The notes under the pieces were generated by a model. That model saw nothing but the letters and a program-made list of their open reading frames with translations, did not search any database and was not told the origin of the DNA. Below are positions 5,918-20,631 of a stretch of 22,925 bases of DNA, piece after piece (position 1 is the first letter of the stretch; each line of letters starts with the position of its first letter). A program made the position numbers and the translations under genes. The stretch is from Candidatus Iainarchaeum sp. Its GTDB lineage: Archaea; Iainarchaeota; Iainarchaeia; Iainarchaeales; JAFCCJ01. The DNA is taken from positions 1 through 22,925 of the forward strand of contig JBDRHK010000074.1 of NCBI GenBank assembly GCA_043816965.1, written 5' to 3'.

Positions 5918-5934
5918 GGCAAAATATAGCGCAT

Positions 5935-5952
5935 AAGTTATTTAAATAACTT
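5935..5952 (-). promoter_or_regulatory. BRE/TATA promoter within a perfect 18-bp palindrome, upstream of the surface-protein gene (probably leaderless)
   Basis: AAGTTATTTAAATAACTT is a perfect palindrome. The minus strand reads GAAAGTTATTTAAATA about 20 nt before ATG 5917. Confidence 0.55.
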
Positions 5953-5979
5953 TCGTTTAAGAAAATTGAGGATCAGGAT

Positions 5980-6156
5980 TCAGTCCTTGAAATGAACATA
6001 CTTTTCCTTGCATCTCTCGGAGCAGAATTTTTGGTAGTAGAGGAAAGGGTCATCCCCCCTGGCAACCCCCTCGCCGCAAACCCTGCACCTTTTTTCAGGC
6101 TCTTGTATTCTTGGGCCAAGGGCATTATTCCTCTTAAAATAATCGCTGAAATCCAT
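5980..6156 (-). CDS. Small Zn-finger protein (CxxC...FCSxxC, DUF2116/MYM-like)
   Basis: CRVC...KFCSERC motifs. ATG 6156 is preceded by GGAGGTTGA, so it is preferred over the track's GTG 6189. Confidence 0.7.
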   Translation of the reverse strand: MDFSDYFKRNNALGPRIQEPEKRCRVCGEGVARGDDPFLYYQKFCSERCKEKYVHFKD

Positions 6157-6324
6157 CGGGGCATCAACCTCCAAACCAAAATTCTGCACGAAATTTCATT
6201 TTAATTTCACTATTATATATCACTTCTTTATAGTCTATTTAATTATAACGGTTTTAACCATAGAACAAATAATATTGGCAAAATAGGGCAGTTTTTGGGG
6301 AATTTCTGCTAGTTTTTATTATGT

Positions 6325-7431
6325 TCAGGGCAAGATATAAATCTGATTATTATTGCCTATCTCCTTCAGAAGTTCTTCGGCTTCTTTCCTCATTTCTCCA
6401 AACCAAAATTTTTCTTCTTCCGCATTGTAAGATGGTTCTACCTGAACAAGTTCAAGCATAAATTCAACAAAATCGCCACTGATTATATCTCCCTGTTCTT
6501 TAGGCAGGCTAATCGGCATCAGCTTTCTTGAAATTTTTTTTAAGTAAAACCATAAAGTATCTCGGTTTTTGTGTATTACACTTTGTGTTCCTTCCTCATA
6601 TAAATCAGGAATATCTTTCCCCTCACTTAATTTGCTGAGGAACGGGGAAAGAACCACTTCTTTGTAAACATCTGTTTGTGAAATAACTGTTGTTAATAAC
6701 ATAAAAAATTTGTCTTCGTCTTTAACAAAACCCCTGAAATTTTCCAATCGCTCATTTTCATCACTAAAAGGCGTATCAAATACCTCGCTCAATTTTTTGT
6801 CATATAACCACGTTCTAAAACAAGGATTTGCATGCAAGTTCAATAATTCTTCAGATGGTTTTCTTGAAGGATGATTTTTGTATATGCTTGATAAGTCAAC
6901 ATAGTAGTAGACTGGAGTGTTTTTGTCTAAATCTATTTTTTCGACCAGCTCTCCTTTATCATAAGACATTCGTTTTATTATCTCAAATCTTTGCCGATTC
7001 ATGAAATGCTGAAACTGATTCAATGAAGAAATGCTTTTTACACCCAGTATTTTTTTCAAGTTCTCGGCAGAAACAGGTTTGAAAAAACACTCAGTAAAAA
7101 TAGCAGAATAATTTTTGTTTCTTTGAATTTTGTGAATTAGTTTGAATAAATTTTTAAAATAATTAACCTGGGTTTCTTTTTTAAATTTTAATTTATTGGA
7201 TTCAAAGAAGTCTTTAAATTTTTTGGGTTCTTCTTCCCTATAGTTTAATCTGTTGACATGATACCCTATAGTGTTTAAAGAAGGGGGCTCTAGCTCAGGA
7301 TATTTTTGCCTAAACCAATTTTGTATTTGACGATAAGTTTTATCTTTGCTCATCTTTCGAATTTCCTGAATATCGTCATTATCCAGCCGTAAAATGTTTC
7401 CTTTAACATTATTTCTTTTAATGGTTTTCAT
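6325..7431 (-). CDS. Hypothetical protein with N-terminal HTH-like region; candidate repressor
   Basis: 368-aa ORF. KTYRQIQNWFRQKYPELEPPSLNTIGYHV resembles a helix-turn-helix. It is transcribed divergently from the replication operon. Confidence 0.6.
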   Translation of the reverse strand: MKTIKRNNVKGNILRLDNDDIQEIRKMSKDKTYRQIQNWFRQKYPELEPPSLNTIGYHVNRLNYREEEPKKFKDFFESNKLKFKKETQVNYFKNLFKLIHKIQRNKNYSAIFTECFFKPVSAENLKKILGVKSISSLNQFQHFMNRQRFEIIKRMSYDKGELVEKIDLDKNTPVYYYVDLSSIYKNHPSRKPSEELLNLHANPCFRTWLYDKKLSEVFDTPFSDENERLENFRGFVKDEDKFFMLLTTVISQTDVYKEVVLSPFLSKLSEGKDIPDLYEEGTQSVIHKNRDTLWFYLKKISRKLMPISLPKEQGDIISGDFVEFMLELVQVEPSYNAEEEKFWFGEMRKEAEELLKEIGNNNQIYILP

Positions 7432-7475
7432 ATTAAAATAATTATTATAAAAAGGTTTATAAACATATTTATTTT
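7432..7475. promoter_or_regulatory. Overlapping divergent BRE/TATA promoters
   Basis: A 44-bp AT-rich gap between divergent ATGs contains TTATAAA-aagg-TTTATAA (7445-7462). The plus strand reads AAAGGTTTATAAA and the minus strand reads AAACCTTTTTATAA. Confidence 0.6.
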
Positions 7476-7664
7476 ATGAAAAAAGAAAATTCCGAAAGAA
7501 GGACACAGATTTGCCAGAAATGTAGGTTTCTCTGGAATCCAAGGATAGAAGAACCTAAAGTATGTCCTCGTTGCCATGCTGATTGGAGAGTGCCATACAA
7601 AATTGGTGCAGGGGTAAAGAAATATTGGCAAAGAGAAGCCCCAGTGCAAGAGGTGAAAGCATGA
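7476..7664 (+). CDS. Small Zn-finger protein of the type seen in archaeal viruses/plasmids (CxxC..WxPR..CPxC...W)
   Basis: CQKCRFLWNPR...VCPRCHADW. Confidence 0.75.
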   Translation: MKKENSERRTQICQKCRFLWNPRIEEPKVCPRCHADWRVPYKIGAGVKKYWQREAPVQEVKA

Positions 7665-7873
7665 CCTACACGCCTCAGAGATGTAGCCAGTGTTCCCAGA
7701 TAATCCGAGATGAAGATTACTTCGCGTCTAGGAAAATCGATTTGTATGCTAAATTAATTGATGACCTACTTGAACGGGTCGACTCCAAATTAAAAGGCCC
7801 GAAAGCCCTTGACCCTAGAGCAAAGCTTGAGGCAGTGAAGAAAGAAATTGAGGCATTATTGCTGGAGACGTGA
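7661..7873 (+). CDS. Small hypothetical protein (CxxC plus coiled coil)
   Basis: ATG 7661 overlaps the upstream stop (ATGA) and follows GAGGTGA. The protein begins MTYTPQRCSQC. Confidence 0.65.
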   Translation: MTYTPQRCSQCSQIIRDEDYFASRKIDLYAKLIDDLLERVDSKLKGPKALDPRAKLEAVKKEIEALLLET

Positions 7874-7977
7874 TTTGGCAGGGAATAATCAAAAACACAG
7901 GAAAAAAAAAATAATTACGTTTGTTGCCTCTTTGGCAGAAAATTGGAGATGGTAAGAATGAATGGAGATGGTAAAAG

Positions 7978-8184
7978 ATGGAAAGACAGGAATTGGAATT
8001 GTTTTTGAAAAAAACAGTTAAAATTACAAAGATAACATCTGAAGGAAATATGCGTTTTTTCACTGGTGTGATAAAACAGCTTAGTATTGACAATCTAATT
8101 TTAGTGGATAAGTATGACCAATTGGTCATGATTAAATACAACCACATTGAACACATTCAAACAGTTGGCGGTGGTCTGCAATGA
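7978..8184 (+). CDS. Small Sm/LSm-like (SH3-barrel) protein
   Basis: 68 aa with the pattern FLKKTVKI...FTGVIKQL...LILVD...VMIKYNHIEHI, resembling the Sm1/Sm2 motifs. It has an ATGA overlap with the helicase gene. Confidence 0.55.
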   Translation: MERQELELFLKKTVKITKITSEGNMRFFTGVIKQLSIDNLILVDKYDQLVMIKYNHIEHIQTVGGGLQ

Positions 8185-9275
8185 CTGTTAATTACGCATT
8201 TAACAATGCTACTGATTCACAGAAAACTCAAATGAAAAAGAATTATAGACAATTGAAAGACCAAGAAACGATTTCAGTGGGAGATTTACTCGACACTGAT
8301 ATCCCTCCACAAGAATGGATTATTGAGGGGCTGGTGGATGATGAAGGAATGGACATCATTGCGGGACGACCTAAAGATTTTAAATCAGGGTTTATTTTAT
8401 CTGCGTGCATCCACATAGCGATTGGTAGACCATTCATGGGACTAAAGGTCAAAAAATTGAGAACCTTAATTGTTGATGAGGAAAATGGAATAAGGCGAAC
8501 CGACAGGCGGTTGGAGAAACTCATTTTAGCTATGAAACTAACTCCTGAAGAAATAACCGATTTGCGAAAAAACCTAGGATTTTCTATTTGGAAGGGGATA
8601 CAAGTTACTTCTCCTGAAGGAATACAAAAATTAGAGGCATTAATTGTCAAACACAAACCAAAATTTATCGTAGTGGATAGTTTGGTGAGAGTTATGACAG
8701 GGAAAGAAAATGATGTCGGAGATGCTAGGAAAGTATTTCATAACATCAAGCCACTTTTTACACAATATGGTGTCAAATTTCAGTTTGTACACCACACACG
8801 CAAAAATGGCTATGCAAGAGTAACTGTTGAGGATGTCCGAGGAAGTGGTGATTTCATTGGGCAAGTGAACCAGCTTCTTGTGATGAATAGGGATGGAAAA
8901 ACTGAAAATGGAGTACAATTTTTCAATATTTTCTCAGGAGTCGACAGAGATTTTTATGTGAATCGTGCTTACGGAATAAAATTCAAGATATATGATAAGC
9001 TTTTTGAGGACAAAACAGGGCTTGTTGTTGAAAGAATTGGGGAGATGCAAGAGGGCGAAGTTCCGAATAAAGCAGATAAAGTGCCAGATTTATGTGAAAA
9101 AGATGTATTGAAATGGGCAGAAGAAGAAGAAAGAGCTGTGCTGACAAGTGAGTTTGTTGATAAATTCAAGGAAAAATATGCCCAAACATCAGTGGAAAAG
9201 GCTTTGAGTGTTTTAACGAAAGAAGGAAAGCTGATTAGACCACGCCAAGGGAGGTACATTGCGGTGAGGGATTAG
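8181..9275 (+). CDS. AAA_25/RepA-like RecA-fold replicative helicase with C-terminal wHTH
   Basis: EWIIEGL, Walker A variant AGRPKDFKS, LIVDEE, Walker B FIVVDSL, VHHTRK, RGSGDF, and a C-terminal SVEKALSVLTKEGKLIRPRQGRY wHTH. Confidence 0.85.
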   Translation: MTVNYAFNNATDSQKTQMKKNYRQLKDQETISVGDLLDTDIPPQEWIIEGLVDDEGMDIIAGRPKDFKSGFILSACIHIAIGRPFMGLKVKKLRTLIVDEENGIRRTDRRLEKLILAMKLTPEEITDLRKNLGFSIWKGIQVTSPEGIQKLEALIVKHKPKFIVVDSLVRVMTGKENDVGDARKVFHNIKPLFTQYGVKFQFVHHTRKNGYARVTVEDVRGSGDFIGQVNQLLVMNRDGKTENGVQFFNIFSGVDRDFYVNRAYGIKFKIYDKLFEDKTGLVVERIGEMQEGEVPNKADKVPDLCEKDVLKWAEEEERAVLTSEFVDKFKEKYAQTSVEKALSVLTKEGKLIRPRQGRYIAVRD

Positions 9276-9292
9276 GGCGAAAACTGGCTGTT

Positions 9293-9483
9293 CAAACCCA
9301 TAAAAACCATAAATTGCTTAAGAGATTATGGAAAATATGGGTTTGGATTTGCTACCATTTCAGGGTGGATATGCCCCCAATTTAAGATTGGGGGGCTATA
9401 AAACCACTCCTGAAAGGTTATGAGTCCTTTTTTCCATAAAACCCATAAAAAAGGGAAATATGGAAATTATGGGTTTGAGTTTG
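9293..9483. repeat. Cluster of three palindromic units with CCATA/TATGG iterons; putative replication origin
   Basis: 9293-9312 CAAACCCATAAAAACCATAA is inverted against 9326-9345 TTATGGAAAATATGGGTTTG (16/20). A long imperfect hairpin spans ~9354-9419 with core CCCCCAAT-ttaag-ATTGGGGG. A second CCATA x2 / TATGG x2 unit lies at 9432-9483. The cluster sits immediately after the helicase gene. Confidence 0.65.
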
Positions 9484-9589
9484 GTGGCAAACACTAAAAT
9501 CAAACTAAAAAAAGAGGCCTTCCCCCCAAGAGACCGAGAATATTTTACACTTACAGAATTTGAAAACAGGAAACAAAGAGGTGAAGAAA

Positions 9590-9928
9590 ATGGACATAAA
9601 AAACGAAAAGGAAATCTATAAATGTTTGAACTGCGGAGAAAGGGCAGCCACAGTCGACACCAGAAGGAGTTTCTGCCCAAAGTGCAAGGCAAAGGAGAAA
9701 GTGGATTCAGGCATAGTAGAGGAGAAAAGAGCACCGTCTGCCCCCTCAGAATTTGTTGTTCTCGAAATGCTCGACATAGGACGGAAAAACTGGTGCGCGT
9801 CTGATTTAGGGCTTTATTGGGAAACCCCAGGCACACGCCAAAAAACTCTCCAAAGAAACCTAAGAGAGGCCGACATTGCACTGGGCATTAAGAGAGGAAT
9901 TTTGAAGGTTGTCGAAGGAGATGATTGA
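9590..9928 (+). CDS. Zn-ribbon protein
   Basis: ATG 9590 follows GAGGTGA. Contains YKCLNCG...FCPKC. Confidence 0.7.
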   Translation: MDIKNEKEIYKCLNCGERAATVDTRRSFCPKCKAKEKVDSGIVEEKRAPSAPSEFVVLEMLDIGRKNWCASDLGLYWETPGTRQKTLQRNLREADIALGIKRGILKVVEGDD

Positions 9929-10148
9929 TACTATGCCTAAAGACCTAACCCTTTTGTGGAAAGTCGTTGAAGCTAACAAAAACAAATGGCTTTCCGCCTC
10001 GGAGTTTTTCAATGAATCTGACAGGCTTAAAACGGGCAATCACAATCCCTTTGGGAGTTATAATTCGGTTTGTCAATGCCTGCGAGGGATGGGTCTGCAT
10101 AGAAGGGCAAAATACACAACTGGGCAAATGGAGTATTATTGCCCGTAA
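9921..10148 (+). CDS. Small hypothetical protein, possibly wHTH DNA-binding
   Basis: Overlaps the upstream stop, with ATG at 9921 or 9933. KWLSASEF...SVCQCLRGMGL...EYY pattern. Confidence 0.6.
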   Translation: MIDTMPKDLTLLWKVVEANKNKWLSASEFFNESDRLKTGNHNPFGSYNSVCQCLRGMGLHRRAKYTTGQMEYYCP

Positions 10149-10174
10149 GGAAATAAAGTGTGGAGGTGCGAAAA

Positions 10175-10243
10175 ATGAAATGGTTTATAACAGTAGCAAT
10201 CGTTCAATTAATAGTCATAGTGGTTTTGATTGCACTGATATAA
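10175..10243 (+). CDS. 22-aa hydrophobic micropeptide MKWFITVAIVQLIVIVVLIALI
   Basis: Strong GGAGGTG RBS, ATG 10175, TAA 10241-10243. Its first 29 nt are 26/29 identical to the start of the lipoprotein gene at 15346. Confidence 0.65.
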   Translation: MKWFITVAIVQLIVIVVLIALI

Positions 10244-10461
10244 GTGAAAACACATTTTACGGGTTGGTTTAAGGAAAATTGGTATATACCTTTTCCCCTA
10301 TATAATACCAGAGTTAGATACCCTATTGAGAAACAATAAACCACTATAAGCCATCTTTATACGACCTTCAACAAATTAAAATCCCTTATTGTGGGTTTAG
10401 TTCAAACGAGGATTTTTTCACTAATCTTTCTCAGGCATCTAGGTGATTTATTAACCTCATA

Positions 10462-10495
10462 AAATAAAAAATTTATTAGAAATAAAAAATTTATT
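10462..10495. promoter_or_regulatory. Tandem 16-bp repeat of palindromic AATAAA-N3-TTTATT; candidate RHH operator
   Basis: AAATAAAAAATTTATT occurs at 10462-10477 and 10480-10495, directly upstream of the RHH gene. Confidence 0.5.
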
Positions 10496-10509
10496 TAGGG
10501 AGTGAGTAA

Positions 10510-10848
10510 ATGGAAGAAGAGAATTTAGGGGAAAAAATAACAACTACCATCAGGCTGAATAAATCAACTGACCAGCTATTAGATGATTTTGCTAAGGAAA
10601 GGGGAAGCACCCGAAGCGAGATTATCGAATCTGCAATTCGCATACTCTTCAAAGTGGCAAAAGAAGACAGCGATTCTGTAGGTGTCGAATTGGACTTATC
10701 CAGTTGTTTAGCCGAGCAGAAAAAACTTCTTTTAGAAATACATTCCGCAGTTCACAGGGAACAAAATTTACTTCACGAAAGGAGAACGGCTCTTGCACAA
10801 TCGCAGGCAAGAAGAGATGCAGCTCTAGAACAGGAAAAACAGCGATAA
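10510..10848 (+). CDS. Ribbon-helix-helix (CopG-like) regulator with C-terminal coiled coil
   Basis: TTTIRLNKSTDQLLDDFAKERGSTRSEIIESAIR is a canonical RHH pattern. Confidence 0.85.
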   Translation: MEEENLGEKITTTIRLNKSTDQLLDDFAKERGSTRSEIIESAIRILFKVAKEDSDSVGVELDLSSCLAEQKKLLLEIHSAVHREQNLLHERRTALAQSQARRDAALEQEKQR

Positions 10849-10863
10849 GGAAGTTGAGATGAA

Positions 10864-12339
10864 ATGGCAGAAGATGCAAAACTCAAAGTCAAGATAGAAT
10901 TAGACGACCGAGAATTTAGAAAGAAGGTCAAGGATTTAAAGAAAGGCACTACTGTAAAAATGGGTGCTGGTGGAAGTGATGCGTCAGTTAAACTTAAAGA
11001 AAAACTTTCATCTGGTGGAAGTATATTAGACACAATCAAAAATGCGTTCGGAGGAATGAAAGGAGCAGTTGCAGGCGGTGCTTCTGGAGCAGCAGCAGGT
11101 GGTGCGGGTGCGGCTGGAGGAGCAATCGCAGGAGGAGCGGTTGCTGGATTAGCTGGTGGAGCAGTCCTTGGCGTTTTGGGAATAATTGCATCAGCAGTTA
11201 CAACACTTCTTGGTCTAATATTAGAATCCAGTGGAATACTAAAAAATTCAATTGGAAATCTCCTCAAAGTAATAATGTTGATTCTCCGACCAATTGGGGA
11301 TATATTTGGAAGTATGTTAAAACCATTGATTTGGGTCCTACTGCCAATGGCAAAAATGATTAACCTGCTATTCAAACCTTTTCTCTTGTCTTATCGAAAA
11401 AGGTTAATGGAAGAAAAGCAAAAAGGTTCTTACGACTTTACAAGCGAAAACTTTGACCCATTCGGAGCAAATCTACGCTCAGGGGTCGGCGCATTAGCAG
11501 ACTGGGGAGCATTTTTGTTCTCAGTAGGATTAGAACAACTATTACTCGGAATCACTTCTGCCTTGGCTGAACTCGCAAGGACAATTGTAAACATTTCAGC
11601 GGACACACTAATAATGTTACTAAACGCATTCAAACTTCTTGGCAATAGTTTTTATGATATTATAGAAGCAATGACTCCTTTCAAAGGCATTACTGATGGA
11701 GTGAGGGGAACCTTCAACAATCTCATGGATAGTCTGATTATTGGAGTGGATTCAATGAGAAACAATTCCATAGCCACAATAAATAAATGGGAAGTAGATG
11801 CAAAATTTTTAATTGTAAGTGCGTTTGACCTTATGGAAAAAGCATTCGCAGAAGGATTAGATGCATTACTAACACAAGTACAGGCTTTCAAAAATGCACT
11901 GATGAATATTCCAATCAGAAATGGTGGTGGCGGACCGCGTGTTCCAGCAACTAATGCAATTACGCCTATGGCGAAGATATATGGTGCAACTGGTGCAGAA
12001 ATGGATATATATTCAAAACTTCGAGAAGATGCTTATCAGAACATGAACCAAAAAGCGGATATGTCTATCCCAAGAGAAGCATTTGCGAAACTAGGGTTCC
12101 CAAGCCAACAAGTTGGTTCATCATACATTCCAGAAACGGGCAATTATATGCTTCATAGAGGAGAACAAGTATTGCGAGCTAATGAATCAAAAGAACAAGG
12201 CGTTAATATAGTTCAAAATTTCAATGTTAGTGCAAAAATTGATGGCAGATTGGATTTGAGAAAACTTGTTGATGAAATGTCGGACTTAATGACACTAAAC
12301 CTGCAATCAGAATTAAGAAGAAGGGTGAGTTATACATGA
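10864..12339 (+). CDS. Tape-measure-like protein
   Basis: N-terminal LKVKIELDD, a Gly/Ala-rich stretch, hydrophobic and amphipathic helices, and a C-terminal GSSYIPETGNYMLHRGEQVL motif followed by VNIVQNFNV, as in tail tape measure proteins. Confidence 0.7.
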   Translation: MAEDAKLKVKIELDDREFRKKVKDLKKGTTVKMGAGGSDASVKLKEKLSSGGSILDTIKNAFGGMKGAVAGGASGAAAGGAGAAGGAIAGGAVAGLAGGAVLGVLGIIASAVTTLLGLILESSGILKNSIGNLLKVIMLILRPIGDIFGSMLKPLIWVLLPMAKMINLLFKPFLLSYRKRLMEEKQKGSYDFTSENFDPFGANLRSGVGALADWGAFLFSVGLEQLLLGITSALAELARTIVNISADTLIMLLNAFKLLGNSFYDIIEAMTPFKGITDGVRGTFNNLMDSLIIGVDSMRNNSIATINKWEVDAKFLIVSAFDLMEKAFAEGLDALLTQVQAFKNALMNIPIRNGGGGPRVPATNAITPMAKIYGATGAEMDIYSKLREDAYQNMNQKADMSIPREAFAKLGFPSQQVGSSYIPETGNYMLHRGEQVLRANESKEQGVNIVQNFNVSAKIDGRLDLRKLVDEMSDLMTLNLQSELRRRVSYT

Positions 12340-12414
12340 CGGACAGGCGTCATATTCATTGAAATTGGTAGAGGGAAAACTTAGTTAAAATAAAAAGGAT
12401 TGAGGTGATGAAAA

Positions 12415-12795
12415 ATGGCAGTTCCATTTAATTCAAGTACGAGAGGTGTGTTGCAATATACACTCACAGCATCTAATGATACCACTGGTGCGTCTGATGC
12501 TTTAACAGATGACATATTATTTGGTATGTTGGTTGGTGTAAGATTCCTCAATGGTACAAATACAGCAAACAATTGGGATGTAACTCTTAGAGATGCAGAT
12601 GGTTTGCAGATTTATACTGGCTCTTCGATAAATAGTGCTGACTCACATGCAAACAATTTTGTTGTTCCATCAATAGCGGGAACGAACTCAACAAATACAG
12701 AATTCACTTATCCAGTAAGCGGACAGTTATCGGTAAGTATTGCGAATGCGAGTGCAAGTAGTGCTCCACAAGTGAGATTTTACCTAAGACAATAA
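12415..12795 (+). CDS. Small beta-rich protein, probable virion structural protein (jelly-roll-like)
   Basis: 126 aa, rich in S/T/N/A/G, with alternating beta-strand patterns (LVGVRF, WDVTLRD, LSVSIAN, VRFYL), no signal peptide, and a GAGGTGA RBS. Confidence 0.6.
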   Translation: MAVPFNSSTRGVLQYTLTASNDTTGASDALTDDILFGMLVGVRFLNGTNTANNWDVTLRDADGLQIYTGSSINSADSHANNFVVPSIAGTNSTNTEFTYPVSGQLSVSIANASASSAPQVRFYLRQ

Positions 12796-12822
12796 AATTA
12801 CAAAGAGGAATGAGGTGATGAG

Positions 12823-13350
12823 ATGAAATACCATAAATCAGGAGAAGAATTTCGTTTTAGGTTGGAAAAAGCCCAACAGGAAGATGATGATAAAACATTG
12901 ATGAAGATTTCCTCAATGAATCCATCTGATTTGTTGGATTTGAGCGAAGCGGAAATTGAAAGGAGATTGAAAATCCTTCAAAATCGTCTCAATGAATTAA
13001 GGGGAGGCGAAACTGCCCAAGAGGAAGAAAGTTTAGAATGCGTAACTCAACAAGAAGAGGACGATACTTTAGAAGAAATCGAGAAGATGGATGCAATAAG
13101 GCGGGTAAAAGACGGCAAGATGAGAGAGGAATTAATGCAAAAAGGCGATGCCACTCCTCAAGACACAATCCTTAGACGACAAAACGAAGCAGAATATCAA
13201 AAAAAGATTGAGGCATTGGAAAAATCTTACGGCCATGAAAAAGCTGCTAGATTAAGAAGAGGCTTTGAAAGAGCAGAATTGATTGGCAGTGCAGGGGCAT
13301 TGTCGAGAGCCTATGAGAAGGCACTCAAAACATTCCCTTACCCAATATGA
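12823..13350 (+). CDS. Acidic coiled-coil protein (scaffold-like, function unknown)
   Basis: 175 aa, E/D/K/R-rich and helical, with a GAGGTGA RBS. Confidence 0.7.
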   Translation: MKYHKSGEEFRFRLEKAQQEDDDKTLMKISSMNPSDLLDLSEAEIERRLKILQNRLNELRGGETAQEEESLECVTQQEEDDTLEEIEKMDAIRRVKDGKMREELMQKGDATPQDTILRRQNEAEYQKKIEALEKSYGHEKAARLRRGFERAELIGSAGALSRAYEKALKTFPYPI

Positions 13351-13421
13351 CGCTTAACAGACATGTGTTAAGAAAAATTGCTGAGACAAACCATTATCTC
13401 ACTTCGGCGAAACGGCGAAAA

Positions 13422-13477
13422 ATTGTGTGGAGGGAAGAAAAAGGGGTTCGCACTCCTACCCTCCCCCTCCACACAAT
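13422..13477. other. Strong hairpin upstream of the TerS-like gene
   Basis: A perfect 13-bp stem, ATTGTGTGGAGGG (13422-13434) with CCCTCCACACAAT (13465-13477), encloses the inner hairpin AGGGGT-tcgc-ACTCCT. Confidence 0.7.
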
Positions 13478-13492
13478 ATGGCTGGTGAAAAA

Positions 13493-13924
13493 ATGGAAAA
13501 GAACGGTTACAAAAATACTCCCCATAGGTTTAGTCTGGCTGACCAAATTAAAGGCGGACAAGCAAAGAGTTTGAGAAAGACATTAGCTGTCAGACTGAAT
13601 CCAATGAAAAACCCATCTACACTAAAAAGAGAACTGGAAGAAGTCCTTGACAAAAACCTTAACGCTGACGCATTGAAAAATATTCTGCGTTTAGCCAATG
13701 AGAAAAATGGTCAGATTTTAATTGACGAAATGGTTGAGGTATTGATTGAAATGAAAAAGATTGTTTCTGATGAACCTACATTGGCAAAATATGATTTATA
13801 CTTAAAAAGATTAATTGACTTCAAAACTGCGATTTGGGGAACAAAGCTCATAGTCGAAACCAATGAAGATACACTACTTCACAAAGAATTTCTTGAGAGG
13901 CTAAAAGTCGTAGAGGTTGATTGA
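13493..13924 (+). CDS. Putative terminase small subunit-like protein
   Basis: ATG 13493 follows GGTGA. The N-terminal F...DQIKGGQAKS..K motif, helical core and C-terminal WGTKLIVE beta-tail are reminiscent of TerS. The assignment is tentative. Confidence 0.45.
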   Translation: MEKNGYKNTPHRFSLADQIKGGQAKSLRKTLAVRLNPMKNPSTLKRELEEVLDKNLNADALKNILRLANEKNGQILIDEMVEVLIEMKKIVSDEPTLAKYDLYLKRLIDFKTAIWGTKLIVETNEDTLLHKEFLERLKVVEVD

Positions 13925-14020
13925 ATGACCGACAAACAAATCAAAATTCAATTGGGCAAAATCCGAGAATTAAAGGAAATTATTTATTCAATGAATCCTA
14001 ACCGAGGTGATGCATATTGA
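13925..14020 (+). CDS. 31-aa hypothetical peptide MTDKQIKIQLGKIRELKEIIYSMNPNRGDAY
   Basis: The ATG directly follows the upstream stop, and its stop overlaps the next TTG start. Confidence 0.4.
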   Translation: MTDKQIKIQLGKIRELKEIIYSMNPNRGDAY

Positions 14021-14214
14021 CACAAATTTTTCATACAATATTCAAAGACAAAAGTAAAATACTAAATTCAGAAATCCCGAGTGAAACAAAAGCAGAACTC
14101 GTTCTAACCAATGAAAAAGGTGAAACACGACTAAGCTTTGATTGTGTAGAGGCTTTTTACCTGGGGAAACAGGAAGACATCATAAAGAATCTCTTACCTT
14201 TGGAGAAGAAATAA
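14017..14214 (+). CDS. Small hypothetical protein
   Basis: TTG start preceded by GAGGTGA. It is the last gene of the plus-strand operon. Confidence 0.55.
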   Translation: MTQIFHTIFKDKSKILNSEIPSETKAELVLTNEKGETRLSFDCVEAFYLGKQEDIIKNLLPLEKK

Positions 14215-14338
14215 TAATCACAGGCGTTAGGTTATTGTTTCCCAATAGGGTAATGAACAAGTGGGTTGTATTGGAGGAAAGGTATAACCGTTTGACCTCA
14301 TTTCAAGAGTTTATTAAGATAAGCTAAAAATGAAATAA

Positions 14339-15346
14339 TTAGTTTTGTTTTAGTATTTGGATAGCAATGGTACATTTTACTTCGTCATAACTTCCTTGCT
14401 GGTAACCGCAATCAAAATATACAGTTCCTGAGGTAACTTCTTCTGAAACATTTTCCAACAAAATAAACCCTCTTTTGGTTATTCCTGGATATATCTCCCC
14501 GCTTTCTATTGCGCCCGAGTAACTAGAAAAATAATCTGCTTTACTTTGATTTTTTAAATTATCAATGAATACAATGCTTGATGGGAAAAAGTACCTCTCT
14601 TTGTCTGTAATATTAGTAACCTCTAAATCTAACCTAAGTTTTGTTTCCTCGTCGCCAAAACTATACGCCTTACCTGTGAACCAACCAATCTGTTTGATTG
14701 TTATTAGAAAATATCCTTTTTGGTCACTTTTGTCAATTGTGACTGCTGATTTTTGGTATAGTTCTTCATAAATCTCTTGTAGTTCTTCTTTTGATTTTTC
14801 TGGAATTCCAAATAAACTTGTTTCTATTTTTTCAAATGTTATTCCGCTATCTGTTTCAAATGTTAAATATAAAGTCCCTGTACTTCCAGCAGTAGATTTT
14901 TCAATTTCTTCTTCAAAAATTTCTCCTGCCCAAATAAGTCGCTCTATTTGAGTTATTCCAATAGTAGTGTCAAAAAAATCTGATTTTTTTACATTGAAAG
15001 AATTTGAATAAACTTTTTTGCCTTCTTTATCTTCAATTTCAACTAATGCTGTTCCGTTTGTAGATATTTCATTTTTAGACGCATCAAGAAAGCTAAAATA
15101 AAATCTGATACAATCTTTTCCTCCGCAAGTATCAGTGTAGGCAATAAGACCATAAATCCAATCAGGTTTTGGTGCTAAATCCTTGACAATTGTATCAGGG
15201 GCATTTTGTGTTCCTATTTCTTGATTATCCGTTTTTGGATTTTGTTCTTGTGAAATATCCGTTATTGGTTGATTATCTGAATCAGTGGTTACGCACCCAC
15301 CCAAAAGAATTAAACTTACTATTGCTATTGTTATCAACCATTTCAT
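14339..15346 (-). CDS. Lipoprotein with C-terminal DUF4352-like Ig domain
   Basis: Lipobox LLGG-C. The C-terminal LDLEVTNITD...FIDNLKNQ...GEIYPGITKRGFILLE matches the DUF4352 pattern. Confidence 0.75.
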   Translation of the reverse strand: MKWLITIAIVSLILLGGCVTTDSDNQPITDISQEQNPKTDNQEIGTQNAPDTIVKDLAPKPDWIYGLIAYTDTCGGKDCIRFYFSFLDASKNEISTNGTALVEIEDKEGKKVYSNSFNVKKSDFFDTTIGITQIERLIWAGEIFEEEIEKSTAGSTGTLYLTFETDSGITFEKIETSLFGIPEKSKEELQEIYEELYQKSAVTIDKSDQKGYFLITIKQIGWFTGKAYSFGDEETKLRLDLEVTNITDKERYFFPSSIVFIDNLKNQSKADYFSSYSGAIESGEIYPGITKRGFILLENVSEEVTSGTVYFDCGYQQGSYDEVKCTIAIQILKQN

Positions 15347-15569
15347 CCTAAAACCCTTTTAAAACTATTAATTTTTAATACGGAAAAGTGTTTAAATGGG
15401 CGTTTAAGCAGAAAAAACCAAGGCAAACAATAGGACACAATAAAGAATATTAATGCTTCAAGTGTAAAACAATAATCCCTTATAGCGGGTTATTGTTTAT
15501 CTAAACCACTATGTTCTTGTAGGGTGTTTTTATGGAAAGGGTTAGTAATAATGGTAATTTAACAGAATT

Positions 15570-15626
15570 TCAAAAAGCAATCAAAAGGATTAAACTTACC
15601 AATACTATTCCAATCAGCCACTTCAT
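15570..15626 (-). CDS. 18-aa hydrophobic micropeptide MKWLIGIVLVSLILLIAF
   Basis: ATG 15626 follows AAAGGGG, and TGA is at 15572-15570. The upstream region and codons closely resemble those of the lipoprotein start at 15346 (GTAAGTTTAATyCTTTTG, 17/18). Confidence 0.6.
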   Translation of the reverse strand: MKWLIGIVLVSLILLIAF

Positions 15627-15681
15627 TTCAAAGCCCCTTTAATGTTAATTTTAATGTAAACAAATGTAAAAGATGTTATCC

Positions 15682-16455
15682 TTATTCAATCGTAGTGTAG
15701 GTAATTATATAATCCTCAGGTTCATCAGAATATCCATCACTATAATATAAGCGTTCTTTGTTCATAGTTTCGGGGATTTCAAAAACCAAATTGTAATCAC
15801 TGACTTCAGTAGGCGCTAAACACCCCTTGTCAAGAAGATAATAATGCTGAACAGAAAATCTCCTATCTTCATCATCTTTTAGGTTAAAGCTTCCAGATAA
15901 ACTATTAATGCATTCTGCTTTTTTTCCAAGGTTCGTTATTGTAACTTCTGCTACAAACCATTTCCATCCTTCTTTAGCTGTCCTACTCCAACGACTGTAT
16001 GTTGCGGCTTCGCCCAACTCAATCGCCAAAGAACGACCAATTATTGTTTTATCAGGGTATTTTTCTTGCAAGAGTTCTTTATCAGTTTTATAACCACACT
16101 CAACACTATTTTCTTCTCTTGCTGTTTCCGAAACACACTCATCATTCTTACAGTAAAAAGTCTCGATTACTTTTGTTGTTCCCTCACAATAAGAACCGTT
16201 TTTTGCTTCACAAATAGCGGGGTTGCATTTTGGTTCTGGTTCACTAACTTGCTCTTGCAGAATAGGTTCAGTTGTCGGGTTTTCTAATTCGAGCAGACAT
16301 TCCTGTTTTTGTGAAACATCATTTATTCCTTCACAGATAAAAGGGTCATTGTTCTCAATAGCAATCCTATAATAATCATCATCTGTAAAATCAGTTGTAG
16401 GGCAACCACTAAAAAGAATTAAACCTGCTAAAATTATTGCAATTAACCACTTCAT
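15682..16455 (-). CDS. Lipoprotein with Cys-rich region and C-terminal DUF4352-like domain
   Basis: Lipobox LFSG-C, AKEGWKWFVAEVTITNLGK...FNLKDDEDRRF...LAP...LVFEIP. Confidence 0.75.
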   Translation of the reverse strand: MKWLIAIILAGLILFSGCPTTDFTDDDYYRIAIENNDPFICEGINDVSQKQECLLELENPTTEPILQEQVSEPEPKCNPAICEAKNGSYCEGTTKVIETFYCKNDECVSETAREENSVECGYKTDKELLQEKYPDKTIIGRSLAIELGEAATYSRWSRTAKEGWKWFVAEVTITNLGKKAECINSLSGSFNLKDDEDRRFSVQHYYLLDKGCLAPTEVSDYNLVFEIPETMNKERLYYSDGYSDEPEDYIITYTTIE

Positions 16456-16565
16456 TTTCTCATCTTCTAAAATTTATTAAATATTTTTATAATAAAGGTT
16501 ATTTATAATTAATGTTAGGCAACTGTTACGCTAATTTATAGCCAAAAGTTACGCATCCTTTTTCT

Positions 16566-16817
16566 ATGAGTAAGTATGATTTGATTGCATCAGTTCGGAG
16601 AAGTAAAATCAAATTAGAAATTTTGCGATTACTCGGAGAACCGAAAACGGCGACAGATTTAAAGAAAATAATAAGGGTGCATAGGGAAAGCATAAGTAGG
16701 GCGTTACTACAAATGAGTAGCCAAGGCTTGGTTGAATGTATTAATCCAAAACAGCCTAATTTTAGGTATTATAAAATAACTAAAGAAGGTCAAAAGATTA
16801 TGGCAAAACTAAGTTGA
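16566..16817 (+). CDS. Winged-helix (ArsR/MarR-like) transcription regulator
   Basis: ILRLLGEPKTATDL...ESISRALLQM...GLVEC...YYKITKEG. Confidence 0.85.
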   Translation: MSKYDLIASVRRSKIKLEILRLLGEPKTATDLKKIIRVHRESISRALLQMSSQGLVECINPKQPNFRYYKITKEGQKIMAKLS

Positions 16818-17002
16818 TTTATCAGTATCCTTCTCTTTCTTTTCATCAGGGAAAGGACAATCAACCACCCTCTTTTTTAACCTCTTCAACCCATTGGCCA
16901 TAGTCTATAACTCTTAAAGTTCTGTTAAAATCCTGCATCCCTTCTACTCCAAAAACTGCATTTAAAATGATTTTGTCGTCATTTATTTGAAGGGTGAACG
17001 AT

Positions 17003-18370
17003 ATGGACAAATCAAAACCCGAAAAAATTTCTTTAATGACTTTTGTGACTCTTTCTAGCATCATAGTAGCAATATTAGCTACTTATTTTGAATTATTTAA
17101 TACTCCTGTAGAAATAATAGAAGTATCTTTTATTCTGGTTTTTTTATTGTTCGGCACTATTATGGCGAAAAAATATAAAGTTGAACTCATAGAAGTGCTT
17201 AAGGGGTCTCTTATAGTTGGAACTGTTTGGCTTTTTACAGGGACAGCTGTTTCACTTGTGATTGTTGGAGGATCTTTACCTGAAGATATCGGAATCATAT
17301 GGGTCGGAGGAATTATTTTTAGCATCCTTTTTTCTAGAATTGGAGCACAATCAGTTTCAGAATTTGCTTTTGTAAAACCTTCAGCCTCCCCATCCCCTTC
17401 TAGTAAATCAAAAAATAGTCCTGGGACTCTATATGAAACTGACTCGAGACAATTACTCTTTCGTTTGGTTTTAAGTAAACCCGGAAAAAAAGATGAAACT
17501 TTTGAGGATACTGTCAAAATATTGCTGGACCAATTAAAAGAGACAGGCTTGTCCAAGGATACAGAAATGAAAGAGGGATTACATGAAAGCGATAACTTTA
17601 CCCTGTTTGAGTTGTTTTTCCGTTCAGACATGCCTGAAGAAGTTAAAATGCAATATGATTTGTTCAAGAAAAATTTCCAGCTCATGTTGCTAAAAAACAA
17701 AAAATATAAAGGATACGATTTATCAAACACCGCATATTACACCCTAAACGAGTCTGAAAAAACGATTCCTATCAAGTTGGATGAAATTATTTTCAAAATA
17801 AATCTAGGAATAGGCGGCACTGGGATGACAGTCCATCACGAGAATATGCCCAAAGAAATTAAATTTGAGAAATTTATTGAAACAGTCAATAAAGACATGG
17901 GGACTAAATATTATGTCAATCTGTATTTGAGATACTATGCTTCGGAGTTAAACGAATCTTTTTACACTTTGATTAAGGATGTGAACAAATATCTTGCATC
18001 AAAAAAGCTTATTATCGAATCATTCGACATGCAAGATGTGAAAAAACGGTATAAAGATGCTCAACAAGAATGTGTGGATAATTTTAGCTCAGATTTGGGC
18101 GAAAAATTTAAACAAAAAGGCATTGACGATGGCAGCGAAAAAGAAATCGCAAAAGAAGTTGTGGAAAAAGGGTTCACTAAAATCAATATCTTTAATAGGG
18201 ATATAGAAGGCATAGAACTGAAAAAGTTTGAGAAAATTCAAGAAGAACTTTTTAAGAACATTCCTTCCGAAGAATTTGGCTTCGAGTACGACATTGTAAT
18301 TACAACCTTCACAGTTGCGATATCAAGATATGGCTGCTATACTCTCTTTAAACCACCGAAAATTGAATAA
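17003..18370 (+). CDS. Membrane protein with about four N-terminal TM helices, an S/P linker and a large soluble domain; function unknown
   Basis: ATG 17003 follows GGGTGA. Four hydrophobic segments lie in the first ~115 aa, followed by a PSASPSPSSKS linker. Confidence 0.75.
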   Translation: MDKSKPEKISLMTFVTLSSIIVAILATYFELFNTPVEIIEVSFILVFLLFGTIMAKKYKVELIEVLKGSLIVGTVWLFTGTAVSLVIVGGSLPEDIGIIWVGGIIFSILFSRIGAQSVSEFAFVKPSASPSPSSKSKNSPGTLYETDSRQLLFRLVLSKPGKKDETFEDTVKILLDQLKETGLSKDTEMKEGLHESDNFTLFELFFRSDMPEEVKMQYDLFKKNFQLMLLKNKKYKGYDLSNTAYYTLNESEKTIPIKLDEIIFKINLGIGGTGMTVHHENMPKEIKFEKFIETVNKDMGTKYYVNLYLRYYASELNESFYTLIKDVNKYLASKKLIIESFDMQDVKKRYKDAQQECVDNFSSDLGEKFKQKGIDDGSEKEIAKEVVEKGFTKINIFNRDIEGIELKKFEKIQEELFKNIPSEEFGFEYDIVITTFTVAISRYGCYTLFKPPKIE

Positions 18371-18406
18371 ATATTTGAATACTACTTCTGCAAATCATTC
18401 CGCAAA

Positions 18407-19867
18407 TCACCTCGCCTTCAATCTCTGCAACATTTGTTGTGTACTCAATTCAGGTCTATTCCTAATATCATCTAAAAGGATTAGCAATCTTTCCTCAATC
18501 TCTTTTTCCTTTTGGTCTAAATCCCTTTCCTTCATCACGGTTTTAATTGATAGGGGAGCTCCGCATCTGATACAATATTCTCTTGTGGAATGATTCTCTG
18601 CCGTGCAAATCTCGCAAGTTAAGATATTCAACAAAGGCTTGGCTTCCATCTCCTTCTTCAAGCCCAAGGGCTTTAATAATTTGTTTGTCAAGTGGCTGTT
18701 GCTTAGATGGGTGTAAATTGCAGAGGTATTGGAGGCATCACTCCACCCACCAAATTTGTTTAACTCCAGATTGTTTAAATTTTTATCAATCAGATTAGTT
18801 ATTCTGCTGTGGCGCAGCAAGTGAACAAAAACGTGTTTTTTAATCCCTGCCTTTTTTGCCGTCTTTTTAACAATACTCAATATGCTGGTTGCCCTAATGG
18901 GATAATTCCTGAACTTATTTTTATAAGTCCCAATCGGAACAAACAAAGCAATGTCTGGCTCATCTTTTGCAGGATGCCATTGTAGCCATTGGCGAATAAG
19001 CGGAGCGGATGTAATAAAGGGAAGCGTTCTTTCGCCTGTCTTTCCGCTTACAGTTACCTGATATATTTGAGGGTATTCTGGATGAGGAATCAAACTCCCA
19101 ATGGTTAGATTTGTCAATTCCGAGACCCTCAGTCCGCCTTCCCAAGTCATCGAAATTATGCACTTGTCCCTTGGGTTTTCAGCCGCCTCAATCATTTGCT
19201 TTATTTCTTTTTCTGATAAGATATCCTCCCAATTAACTTTTTTTGGGCCTTGCCTAATCTTTATCCATGAAACACTCTCTGGCGCTGTGCCTTTATTCAG
19301 CCATTTAAAAAAAGTTTTAATAGGGGTGATTGACCCATTGTATGAATGAACTGAATATTTTTTTGAGGTATTAACTGTCGGAACCTCTGCGTTTTTATCC
19401 ATCACAAGAGAGACCCTTGTCCCATCCTTTTTCCTGCTAAACCCTTCATAATTTTCAATGAGTTTATTGATTAATTCCCATGCAAAGCTGTCACTACATT
19501 TCAAAACACGCTTCATTTCGGTGATTGAAATTTTCTTATTTGATTTAAGCAAGGCTAATAATTTGTTAAATTTTGTATTAACCTTAAAACTCCCATTTAG
19601 CATATTTCTACAATATTCCGACATATCCTTTTTAGTCAAATCAATAAATGGGGTATCAGGGTATTCCTTTGAAAGCCTCTTAATAGACTGGACAAAACTG
19701 ATATTAGAATGGGGCGAAAAGCCATTCAATTCTCTTTCATTGAGATATTCAACTACCTTGTCTTTGTTTTCTTGCAGGAAAGGCTCTTCCAGATAACTTT
19801 GTCTATAATTTGCATATTGGTTCTGCAATTTTTGTAACACTATCGGATTTATTTTTGCTCCAACCAC
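18407..19867 (-). CDS. Tyrosine recombinase/integrase with C-terminal Zn ribbon (SNJ2-like architecture)
   Basis: Catalytic motifs GLRVSEL, GKTG, HLLRHS, GW and IYTHL. C-terminal CEIC...CIRCG. Confidence 0.92.
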   Translation of the reverse strand: MVGAKINPIVLQKLQNQYANYRQSYLEEPFLQENKDKVVEYLNERELNGFSPHSNISFVQSIKRLSKEYPDTPFIDLTKKDMSEYCRNMLNGSFKVNTKFNKLLALLKSNKKISITEMKRVLKCSDSFAWELINKLIENYEGFSRKKDGTRVSLVMDKNAEVPTVNTSKKYSVHSYNGSITPIKTFFKWLNKGTAPESVSWIKIRQGPKKVNWEDILSEKEIKQMIEAAENPRDKCIISMTWEGGLRVSELTNLTIGSLIPHPEYPQIYQVTVSGKTGERTLPFITSAPLIRQWLQWHPAKDEPDIALFVPIGTYKNKFRNYPIRATSILSIVKKTAKKAGIKKHVFVHLLRHSRITNLIDKNLNNLELNKFGGWSDASNTSAIYTHLSNSHLTNKLLKPLGLKKEMEAKPLLNILTCEICTAENHSTREYCIRCGAPLSIKTVMKERDLDQKEKEIEERLLILLDDIRNRPELSTQQMLQRLKAR

Positions 19868-19920
19868 ATTTAATATTATAAATAAAAACCTTTTTAAATA
19901 TTATTAAAAATTAGTTTAAT

Positions 19921-19947
19921 GGTAATATATTATTTAAATATATTGCC
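19921..19947. repeat. Inverted repeat around a 7-bp spacer; candidate recombination (att) core
   Basis: GGTAATATAT-TATTTAA-ATATATTGCC (arms 9/10 inverted), just upstream of the integrase. TATTTAAwTATA recurs at 6236-6247. Confidence 0.4.
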
Positions 19948-20004
19948 AGAATTGGTTCGATTTTCAAACAGGAAAAGCTTTTTATATAAAAGAGCCCATT
20001 ACAT

Positions 20005-20102
20005 AAACAGAGGGCAAATTATCACCCCTAAATTCTGTATCGAAGACAAAAAGGCAATGGAGGAAAGTTTGGCTTAAAAACCGGCTTTCCTCTCTGTTTT
20101 TT
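20005..20102 (+). ncRNA. Candidate ~95-nt small RNA
   Basis: A plus-strand promoter GAAAAGCTTTTTATATAAA (19972-19990) has no ORF downstream. The ends pair (AAACAGAGGG with CTCTCTGTTT), there is a GAGGAAAG/CTTTCCTC hairpin, and a T6 run follows. Confidence 0.4.
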
Positions 20103-20136
20103 AAGAGATTTAAAATTCGATTTCTACCAGCTTAAT

Positions 20137-20355
20137 TTATTTCAAAAATTTCAGGAATTTGTTTTTGTCCATTTTGAGGTCTTGCTTGATTATCTTTGTC
20201 AGCAGTTTGATTCTGATTTCTTTATGCAGAGGAATTATTGTCGTCCTCCCATCTGAATGTTCAAAGAAAATGTGAGAGCCTTTTTGCCGGATTTCCTCAA
20301 AACCCAAATTGCGCAGTGCACTAATTACTTTGCGCGTTTTAACAGAACTAAGCAT
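20137..20355 (-). CDS. hicA: HicA-family mRNA interferase toxin
   Basis: LGFEEIRQKGSHIFF...TTIIPLH. ATG 20355 overlaps the end of hicB. Confidence 0.9.
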   Translation of the reverse strand: MLSSVKTRKVISALRNLGFEEIRQKGSHIFFEHSDGRTTIIPLHKEIRIKLLTKIIKQDLKMDKNKFLKFLK

Positions 20356-20572
20356 GCACCAAAACCTTTTCCACGCTGACAAAAGGAGTTTTCTTTTTAA
20401 GTTTGTTCTCTTTATGCACTTCCAAATAAAGCTCTATAGCCTCTTTAATATTTTTCAGTGCCTCCTTTTTGGTTTTTCCCTGGGTATGGCACCCAGGTAG
20501 CGCGGGAACATCTACAATAAACCAGCCGTCCTTGTCCTTTTCAATTACAACATCGAACTTTCTTTCATTCAT
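20348..20572 (-). CDS. hicB: HicB-family antitoxin (short form, no DNA-binding domain)
   Basis: VDVPALPGCHTQGKTKKEALKNIKEAIELYLE, with a GGTGA RBS and an AAAGCTTTTATTTA promoter upstream. Confidence 0.9.
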   Translation of the reverse strand: MNERKFDVVIEKDKDGWFIVDVPALPGCHTQGKTKKEALKNIKEAIELYLEVHKENKLKKKTPFVSVEKVLVHA

Positions 20573-20631
20573 TTTTTCACCTGATTATATATGGGTTTAT
20601 CATAAATAAAAGCTTTTGGTTATGTAGAAAT

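Follow-up and report, generated by a model that had tools for sequence, protein, structure and literature searches.

A 13.7-kb integrated element in a Candidatus Iainarchaeum genome combines a tape-measure homologue with a TerS-like gene: a possible satellite of tailed archaeal viruses

Contig JBDRHK010000074.1 of Candidatus Iainarchaeum sp. (Iainarchaeota; GenBank assembly GCA_043816965.1), analysed here over its whole length of 22,925 bp and referred to as the window, contains a discrete insertion of 13.7 kb (~6235-19929) that encodes an integrase, a replicative helicase, a homologue of tail tape-measure proteins (TMPs) and a TerS-like protein. We assign a probability of roughly 50% to the reading that this element is a helper-dependent satellite of a tailed archaeal virus, similar to phage-inducible chromosomal islands (PICIs), because it has genes for its own integration and replication and a putative gene for packaging specificity but neither a head nor a packaging motor. 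A satellite had been proposed in a first-pass annotation made from the window's sequence alone; its tape-measure and TerS-like labels are now backed by homology and gene position, while a third late protein, which it described as beta-rich, is perhaps moron-like. The source genome (G000) measures 1.34 Mb in 109 contigs and is 86% complete, the window being its contig C74. Its size, and the placement of a same-order relative in Candidatus Iainarchaeota by NCBI, agree with the DPANN-like host that had been suggested.

The limits of the element were obtained by comparison with a genome of the same genus (G152), whose contig C8 retains the element-free site. This contig aligns to window positions 2931-6247 at 78% identity and continues gap-free from that match into 19930-20143 (89%), followed by 21282-22675 (84%). 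A three-way junction alignment gave the core of the empty site (attB) as TTATTTAAATAT; attR (19930-19941, TTATTTAAATAT) is identical to it and lies 63 nt from the integrase start codon, and attL (6235-6246) has the imperfect 12-bp core CTATTTAATTAT, so that the two ends of the element carry an imperfect 12-bp direct repeat. The span first annotated, 6236-19947, was nearly exact, with the limits now corrected by this junction. The integration site is a 12-bp AT-rich core that is intergenic rather than in a tRNA gene, and neither a tRNA nor an Rfam RNA was detected in the window. The att core is known only because of the comparison with G152: repeat and k-mer searches within the window alone found no repeat of at least 14 nt, and local alignment within the window gave scores inside the shuffle range. 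The GC content is 36.0% in the element, compared to 42.5% genome-wide.

The only recombinase of the element is a tyrosine integrase of 486 aa with a C-terminal Zn ribbon, encoded at the right end (18407-19867, minus strand) and not at the left end where it had first been placed. It matches PF00589 (E = 7.4e-22, residues 217-391) and phrog_1 (6e-25), and the motifs HLLR and, downstream, IYTH are visible in its translation. It is 33% identical over 470 aa to the integrase of L023, a related element in another host family, and is not a host Xer protein since it scores 103 bits against an XerA cutoff of 220. A 368-aa open reading frame (ORF) at the left end was also considered as an integrase and rejected, having no family match in Pfam, PHROGs, NCBIfam or PADLOC and no Atlas lead that reaches 0.85.

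The late operon lies on the plus strand and encodes a ribbon-helix-helix (RHH) protein followed by proteins of 491, 126, 175, 143 and 65 aa. All genes are intact, and the order RHH, tape-measure-like, beta-rich, coiled coil and TerS-like is as the first-pass annotation had described it. The RHH protein (10510-10848) is CopG/Arc-like with a coiled-coil tail (PF01402, 1e-5) and is 51% identical to the product of the gene immediately 5' of the TMP gene in L005, a related locus from a different host family. Across the phylum, the RHH profile gave two extra weak matches (G010 and G074), neither in a related gene context.

The 491-aa protein (10864-12339) is a full-length TMP homologue, identified from homology and from the gene position of its relatives. 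It scores weakly against phrog_1272 (2.1e-5) and phrog_28 (1.2e-3), has no Pfam or NCBIfam match, and contains Gly/Ala-rich hydrophobic segments at residues 86-126 and 216-235. Only three relatives were found among the 8,000 top candidates scored from 5.8 billion cluster representatives; these align collinearly with the window protein, and the termini are strongly conserved. The window protein is 50% identical over its full length to that of L002 and 43-46% identical to that of L003, the range for L002, L003 and L004 being 43-50%. In these three metagenomic loci, a Phage_tube_2 tail tube gene and an ORF of 109 aa come before the homologue. In L003 it is followed by an ORF of 127 aa and a Prophage_tail hub gene, and genes for an HK97 major capsid protein (MCP) and Neck1 lie upstream. 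The TMP profile matched in 6 of 215 genomes of the phylum, G000 included, and four distant homologues all lie in proviruses of the same order, where the tube gene adjoins in L011-L013 and the hub gene in L011, L013 and L014; the L011 and L012 proviruses also carry TerL, portal, protease and an SU10-type MCP. The window TMP gene itself follows the RHH gene and not a tail tube or chaperone gene. Its product of 491 aa matches the L002 virus copy in length (489 aa), so the gene is not truncated. On this homology and gene order, we regard the 491-aa protein as a true tape-measure homologue. No match was found to GenBank phages by tblastn, the TMP profile gave nothing below E 0.2 against the PDB, and IMG/VR yielded no relative when scanned with the TMP itself, with its alignment or with an alignment of the 126-aa protein family. 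Tape-measure length sets tail length, and the TMP takes part in genome injection. On that basis, the element's TMP could either fit the tails of a helper to the needs of the element or disable them; this role is the least constrained part of the satellite reading, and the element family manages without a TMP in the related locus L021.

The TerS-like protein (143 aa, all-alpha; 13493-13924) is named for its homology to proteins encoded at the TerS position. Its start at 13493 agrees with the starts of its homologues, and its N-terminus carries the conserved motif H-x-[LF]-[ST]-x-x-[DE]-x-x-[KR]-G-G. An exhaustive HMMER search of 1.84 billion representatives gave seven relatives, and a word-index search gave none. 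Within the phylum, the family profile identified a full-length homologue in G101 (L021) and N-terminal matches in G111 (L022) and G063 (L023). In the latter two genomes, the matched proteins of 161-162 aa overlap the start of a Terminase_6N/6C TerL gene by ~40 nt, and alignment of the family to the 162-aa protein of L022 with hhalign gave 95.2% probability (E = 2.7e-8, 115 columns). The label is supported by this homology to TerS-position proteins, not by membership of a known TerS family; against the PDB, the profile matched designed helical repeat proteins only.

The remaining late genes link the element to both viruses and other elements. The 126-aa protein (12415-12795), predicted to be a beta-sandwich with five N-x-S/T sequons, is 70% identical to a protein of the tailed virus L003 (1715-2110) encoded between the capsid gene and the neck genes, and has five relatives at 65-73% identity. 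Among the 215 genomes of the phylum, its gene occurs in G000 only, and it has no counterpart in the other proviruses. An AlphaFold2 model has eight strands at low confidence (pLDDT 56); Foldseek against the PDB gave nothing at E <= 1e-3, only generic beta-sandwiches, and comparison with BFVD gave two unnamed viral proteins at E <= 1e-3 (TM 0.53-0.55). In L003 (1555-2110), the 131-aa homologue of the 126-aa gene is overlapped at its start by a 58-aa ORF, whose product is homologous to the C-terminal domain of an early 122-aa protein of the element; the two resemble a cassette that virus and element have exchanged. The 175-aa protein (12823-13350), an acidic coiled coil without a Pfam or PHROG family, is 38% identical at its C-terminus to a 98-aa ORF that lies between the RHH and TerS-like genes in L021. 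The last gene of the operon (14017-14214) encodes a conserved small protein of 65 aa that is 62-64% identical to a 74-aa ORF following the TerS-like gene of L021. The TMP, TerS-like and 126-aa genes each have homologues in siphovirus-like archaeal viruses or in TerL-bearing elements.

None of the ORFs of the island matched a Pfam or PHROG family of capsid, portal, TerL, protease, tube or hub proteins. The first-pass annotation had likewise recognised no TerL, portal or HK97 MCP, and this held when tblastn with the relatives' proteins was added. For remnants, all ORFs from 12 related loci were searched against the window by tblastn (E <= 0.05), and real matches came from shared genes only, namely the TMP, 126-aa, TerS-like, early, integrase and lipoprotein genes. 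The MCPs of L003, L011 and L012 gave nothing in this search, with five ORFs of the island remaining without a fold assignment, and the portal of L012 and the TerL of L022 and L023 gave just a 48-aa match at chance level, from the L012 portal ORF (E = 0.017). This match and the one other marginal match from a virion gene, the L002 chaperone (E = 0.018), both fall inside the integrase gene and were taken as chance.

The early and replication genes suggest a backbone unrelated to that of the complete proviruses. The 368-aa protein (6325-7431, minus strand) has no family in Pfam, PHROGs, NCBIfam or PADLOC; its Atlas leads are all below 0.85 and its Atlas model (pLDDT 0.40) has no capsid-like match. 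A weak homologue occupies the same position in the related locus L038 (38% over 70 aa), and we consider the 368-aa protein probably a DNA-binding or regulatory protein. It diverges across a 44-bp gap from the first gene of the early operon (7476-7664, plus strand), which encodes a 62-aa Zn-ribbon protein with two CxxC pairs that shares 73% identity with its counterpart in L005 and 78% with that in L038. The gap contains 2.3 copies of a 12-bp tandem repeat (7445-7472, Tandem Repeats Finder), a candidate operator. Of the divergent helix-turn-helix (HTH)/Zn-finger switch first annotated here, the divergent pair with a repeat between its genes stands; its Zn ribbon is sub-threshold (PF23470, 2.7e-4), an HTH in the 368-aa protein is putative, and neither protein matches a repressor family in Pfam. 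A conserved 68-aa protein follows (7978-8184, plus strand), with identities of 64% to its L005 counterpart and 53% to that of L038, and the stop codon of its gene overlaps the helicase start as ATGA (8181-8184). Of the ATGA overlaps mentioned in the first-pass annotation, this one is confirmed, and one at 13347 belongs to a doubtful 75-aa ORF.

The helicase (8181-9275, plus strand) is RepA/DnaB-like (AAA_25, PF13481, 2.1e-27) and matches PHROG primase/helicase families, at best with 2e-24. Its family is present in 8 of the 215 genomes, counting G000, and absent from all four genomes with complete proviruses, which argues that the replication module is not that of the known viruses. Downstream, a 280-bp intergenic region holds a putative origin (9294-9476) with four copies of AAACCCATAW in two inverted pairs; the helicase plus iteron region of the first-pass annotation is thus borne out, four of the five copies in the window lying here against 0.22 copies expected window-wide. 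The fifth copy (AAACCCATAT, 20589-20598, minus strand) is not in the element but 17 nt upstream of a HicB start, and is probably due to chance. Two further plus-strand genes complete the early region. One encodes a 122-aa protein (9560-9928) with a Zn ribbon, supported by weak Pfam matches, and a C-terminal DNA-binding-like domain, with homologues in L005, in L038 and in the 58-aa ORF of virus L003; the other encodes a conserved small protein of 79 aa (9909-10148) that is 35% identical to L005 6340-6597 and 33% to L038 3595-3864.

Related elements in other hosts share parts of this organization. In L005, on a Diapherotrites metagenome-assembled genome of host family f14, a host UPF0047 gene is followed by an integrase, a 324-aa minus-strand ORF, the Zn-ribbon protein (73%), the 68-aa homologue (64%), a 512-aa protein unrelated to AAA_25, the Zn/DNA-binding protein, a small ORF, the RHH gene (51%) and a TMP gene cut by the contig end. 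The same RHH gene thus lies directly 5' of the TMP gene, with replication genes farther upstream. A full-length TMP, P0003 (462 aa), is identical to the L005 TMP fragment. The longest contig recorded for P0003 has 30,611 bp, and the same length is recorded for the 144-aa TerS-like protein P0023 and for three exact L005 proteins; an L005-type element therefore very probably carries both a full TMP and a TerS-like gene. The first-pass annotation had asked whether an independent element with the same reduced gene set exists, and what was found here is an independent element in another host family that has the RHH-TMP junction and, very probably, a TerS-like gene (for P0023). L038 (G112) repeats the early module, AAA_25 helicase included; the module is 53-78% identical in L005 and L038, both from another host family than the window. 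L021 (G101) carries an RHH gene (222 aa), the 98-aa ORF, the TerS-like gene, the 74-aa homologue and lipoprotein homologues, with neither TMP nor 126-aa gene. Taken together, these comparisons indicate that the backbone of integrase, early regulators, replication protein, RHH, coiled coil, TerS-like protein and lipoprotein cargo is a mobile lineage of its own, which inserts at differing sites in differing host families with variable caudoviral pieces.

The phylum contains other small elements as well. L022 (G111:C20, 7575-17260) and L023 (G063:C3, 6135-14438) are integrase elements in other host families, with an integrase, regulators, TerS, TerL and two or three small ORFs, one of them Phage_cement-like; no portal or MCP was seen in either. 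L022 additionally contains a Shedu SduA_C gene and an insertion sequence, and a 24-nt direct repeat at 5102 and 17932 (23/24 identical) that may be its att site. A minimal element, L040 (G142:C7, 5772-10841), consists of an integrase beside a host HAD gene, a 354-aa minus-strand ORF, an AAA_25 helicase, a GNAT protein and a 223-aa TerS-like protein that is 30% identical to the TerS-position proteins of L022 and L023. G000 itself has a second small element (L048, G000:C56, 8093-13757) with a MarR-like HTH protein, an RHH protein, a winged-helix (wHTH) neighbour, a 369-aa protein that shares 70% identity with the L023 AAA protein, and a 525-aa TerL-like ORF. This last ORF has an N-terminal HTH_23-like segment, falls just below the cutoffs of Terminase_6N/6C and matches the TerL of L022 by BLAST (8e-17); neither MCP nor portal was detected in L048. 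G000 consequently pairs a TerL without TerS on C56 with a TerS-like gene without TerL in the window.

Between the late operon and the integrase lie genes that we interpret as cargo. Two are lipoprotein genes on the minus strand, each with a signal peptide followed by Cys, as first annotated: one of 335 aa (14339-15346), 34% identical to a 369-aa protein of L021, and one of 257 aa with DUF4352 (15682-16455; PF11611, 1.3e-7; phrog_806). The lipoprotein family of the island has conserved MKW(L/F)I signal peptides and comprises two full genes and two remnants of 22 and 18 aa (10175-10339, 14232-15346, 15582-15642 and 15682-16455), one remnant lying between the two full genes. The other remnant (10175-10339, plus strand) consists of a 22-aa signal-peptide ORF with a 55-nt block downstream; in inverted orientation, it duplicates the start of gene 14339-15346 together with that gene's 3' flank (inverted repeats I1 and I2). 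This left remnant and 55-nt block form inverted repeats that bracket the whole operon from RHH to the TerS-like gene, and recombination between them could invert it. The idea that the operon is a cassette bounded by the 55-nt inverted repeats was rejected because the left arm is a lipoprotein remnant that is absent in L005, which nonetheless has the same RHH-TMP adjacency. The region also encodes an 83-aa winged-helix regulator (16566-16817, plus strand; matches to EarA, HTH_20 and TrmB), homologues of which adjoin the L023 element and the element on G000:C56, and a 458-aa membrane protein (16994-18370, plus strand) with about four N-terminal hydrophobic helices in a hydropathy scan and no Pfam, PHROG, NCBIfam or PADLOC family.

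The flanks of the element are host genes. On the left are a T2SSE-type ATPase, a KaiC-like ATPase and two large surface proteins; the first of these, a secretion/pilus ATPase (3-1310, minus strand), has an N-terminal 4Fe-4S ferredoxin domain (Fer4, residues 60-112) and five paralogous genes elsewhere in G000. On the right are HicA/HicB, DUF192 and undecaprenyl-diphosphate synthase genes. Positions 20144-21281 are a second insertion relative to G152, containing the HicA/HicB toxin-antitoxin genes and most of a 194-aa ORF. In G152, the positions equivalent to 20143 and 21282 adjoin, overlapping by ~19 bp, and HicAB paralogues occur in G000 on contigs C59, C96, C54 and C57.

If the element is a satellite, its cycle would start when a helper tailed virus replicates in the cell, whereupon the element would excise and replicate and its late operon would be derepressed. 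The TerS-like protein would mark element DNA for the TerL and portal of the helper, leading to packaging of the 13.7-kb genome in helper-built heads. The element's tape measure would enter helper tails, where it may either equip element particles for DNA delivery or spoil the tails of the helper. The lipoproteins and the membrane protein would be cargo, with a possible function in exclusion.

Several points weigh against the satellite reading. No complete helper provirus is assembled in G000: the co-occurring provirus that the first-pass annotation had suggested looking for was sought by tblastn (E <= 1e-3), and no homologue of MCP, portal, tube or hub was found in this 86% complete genome, where the only other packaging gene is the 525-aa TerL-like ORF of the small element on contig C56. 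The 143-aa protein matches no TerS Pfam, PHROG family or solved structure, its model is all-helical but poor (pLDDT 55), and its label is drawn from gene position and one profile comparison. The 126-aa gene may be a moron, accessory rather than part of the virion, because it lies beside a small wHTH ORF in L003 and lacks a counterpart in other proviruses. Since L021 has no TMP gene, the TMP does not appear to be core to the element family, and the co-location of TMP and TerS-like genes on the 30,611-bp contig is deduced from equal reported lengths and not read directly. The ORFs of 368, 175, 458, 335 and 257 aa have no fold assignment. Excision, circular forms, packaging and the action of a helper are steps that we infer. 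To our knowledge, no satellite with a tape measure has been described, no search having been aimed at that point.

These points leave room for an alternative that we consider unlikely but the most probable of three, in which the element is integrative and plasmid-like and never enters virions, and its captured viral genes act in anti-virus interference, as a decoy tape measure or TerS, or are passengers. Its replication and integration backbone is indeed unrelated to that of complete proviruses, and its late operon varies, with a TMP in the window and L005 and none in L021. The surface lipoproteins and membrane protein resemble exclusion cargo, and a block of tail assembly is known for bacterial satellites and prophages, according to the part consulted of PMC11364771. 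On the other hand, a conserved TerS-position homologue is a hallmark of packaging-redirecting elements and recurs in at least three related elements, no PADLOC defence family was matched, and interference could coexist with satellite transfer.

Somewhat less probable again is a defective provirus, that is, a tailed virus stripped by deletion of its head, packaging and most tail genes and decaying in place. The TMP and 126-aa genes are closest to true virus morphogenesis modules, the lipoprotein fragments and inverted duplication indicate local rearrangement, and flanks that are 78-89% identical to the sister genome leave time for decay. Relatives with virion genes at these positions, named by the first-pass annotation as the mark of such a provirus, do exist among the viral TMP relatives (L003, L011 and L012), whereas the element-type locus L005 keeps the RHH-TMP arrangement. 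Furthermore, all retained genes are intact, no fragment of a lost virion gene was found by tblastn, and the helicase is missing from the complete proviruses found in the order. Sharing of the early module and the RHH-TMP junction across host families argues against random decay: elements of another family, inserted elsewhere in the genome, have both at protein identities of 44-78%, which independent decay would not reproduce. Finally, an autonomous very small virus with capsid and packaging proteins too divergent to recognise, for which the five ORFs of 175-458 aa without a family match might leave space, is very improbable, given that TerL and portal are normally detectable and were detected in all related proviruses (and TerL in L022 and L023), that three of these ORFs encode a membrane-embedded protein (458 aa) and lipoproteins (335 and 257 aa), that the poor 368-aa model resembles no capsid, and that no tail can be built from a tape measure when the tail tube is lacking.

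Among known systems, the satellite reading finds its closest parallel in PICIs such as the SaPIs, which the element resembles in its size of ~14 kb, its att-bounded insertion, an integrase at one end, a candidate pair of divergent small regulators, its own replication helicase and putative repeat-bearing origin, a TerS-like gene, and the lack of capsid, portal and TerL. The element differs in its archaeal host and in the position of the integrase, which when integrated is at the end opposite the divergent regulators. No sequence homology to PICI genes was seen, and the replication module of AAA_25 helicase and clustered 10-mers has no homology to PICI Pri-Rep. We know of no PICI that carries a tape-measure gene. 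The capsid-forming PICIs (cf-PICIs) are likewise satellites with part of a caudoviral morphogenesis set that take the rest from a helper; as described in the part consulted of a preprint (bioRxiv 10.1101/2025.02.15.638363), they encode MCP and head genes and steal tails, whereas the element has a tail gene and no head genes.

According to the same portion of that preprint (bioRxiv 10.1101/2025.02.15.638363), pSSVx and pSSVi were the sole archaeal satellites known before it, and plasmid-derived satellites of spindle viruses in haloarchaea and nanohaloarchaea were added. pSSVx, pSSVi and the SRCEs of these haloarchaeal and nanohaloarchaeal hosts share with the element an archaeal host, in some cases of the DPANN group, and plasmid-like replication combined with an incomplete virion module. 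They depend on spindle viruses, encode a spindle-virus MCP and/or AAA+ ATPase and are circular plasmids of 2.7-9 kb, whereas the element is integrated, 13.7 kb long and carries caudoviral genes. NMV2S, for which dependence on a tailed archaeal virus is also proposed, measures 3.8 kb and is associated with an Asgard head-tailed virus, and the part consulted of its description reports no virion or packaging gene (bioRxiv 10.64898/2026.08.12.739948). The siphovirus-like proviruses of the same order (L011 in G019, L012 in G052) and the metagenomic L003 share the TMP family with the element; L003 also shares the 126-aa gene and the wHTH domain, and L011 has a tyrosine integrase. Unlike the element, this group has TerL, portal, protease, MCP, tube and hub genes and no AAA_25 helicase. 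A full-text literature search found no integrated archaeal satellite with TerS or TMP; a study of DPANN viruses and mobile elements cited in PMC13573593 lay outside that search.

DPANN mobile elements are barely known, and an integrated element with both a TerS-like gene and a tape measure would show the PICI principle at work among archaeal tailed viruses and in DPANN hosts. The exact att site, the empty site and the related elements provide material for read mapping and biochemistry. More tentatively, we propose that Iainarchaeota may host a family of integrated PICI-like satellites that join a replication backbone of plasmid type to variable helper-type genes, comprising a TerS-like gene alone, TerS with TerL, or a TerS-like gene with a tape measure, of which the member in the window may rewire the tail or DNA-ejection device of its helper. 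If so, these would be the first such satellites described for Caudoviricetes in Archaea. The element in the window would then act beyond packaging specificity, rewiring the helper's tail or DNA-ejection device through its own tape measure, and no earlier satellite is known to contribute a protein for tail length or DNA ejection.

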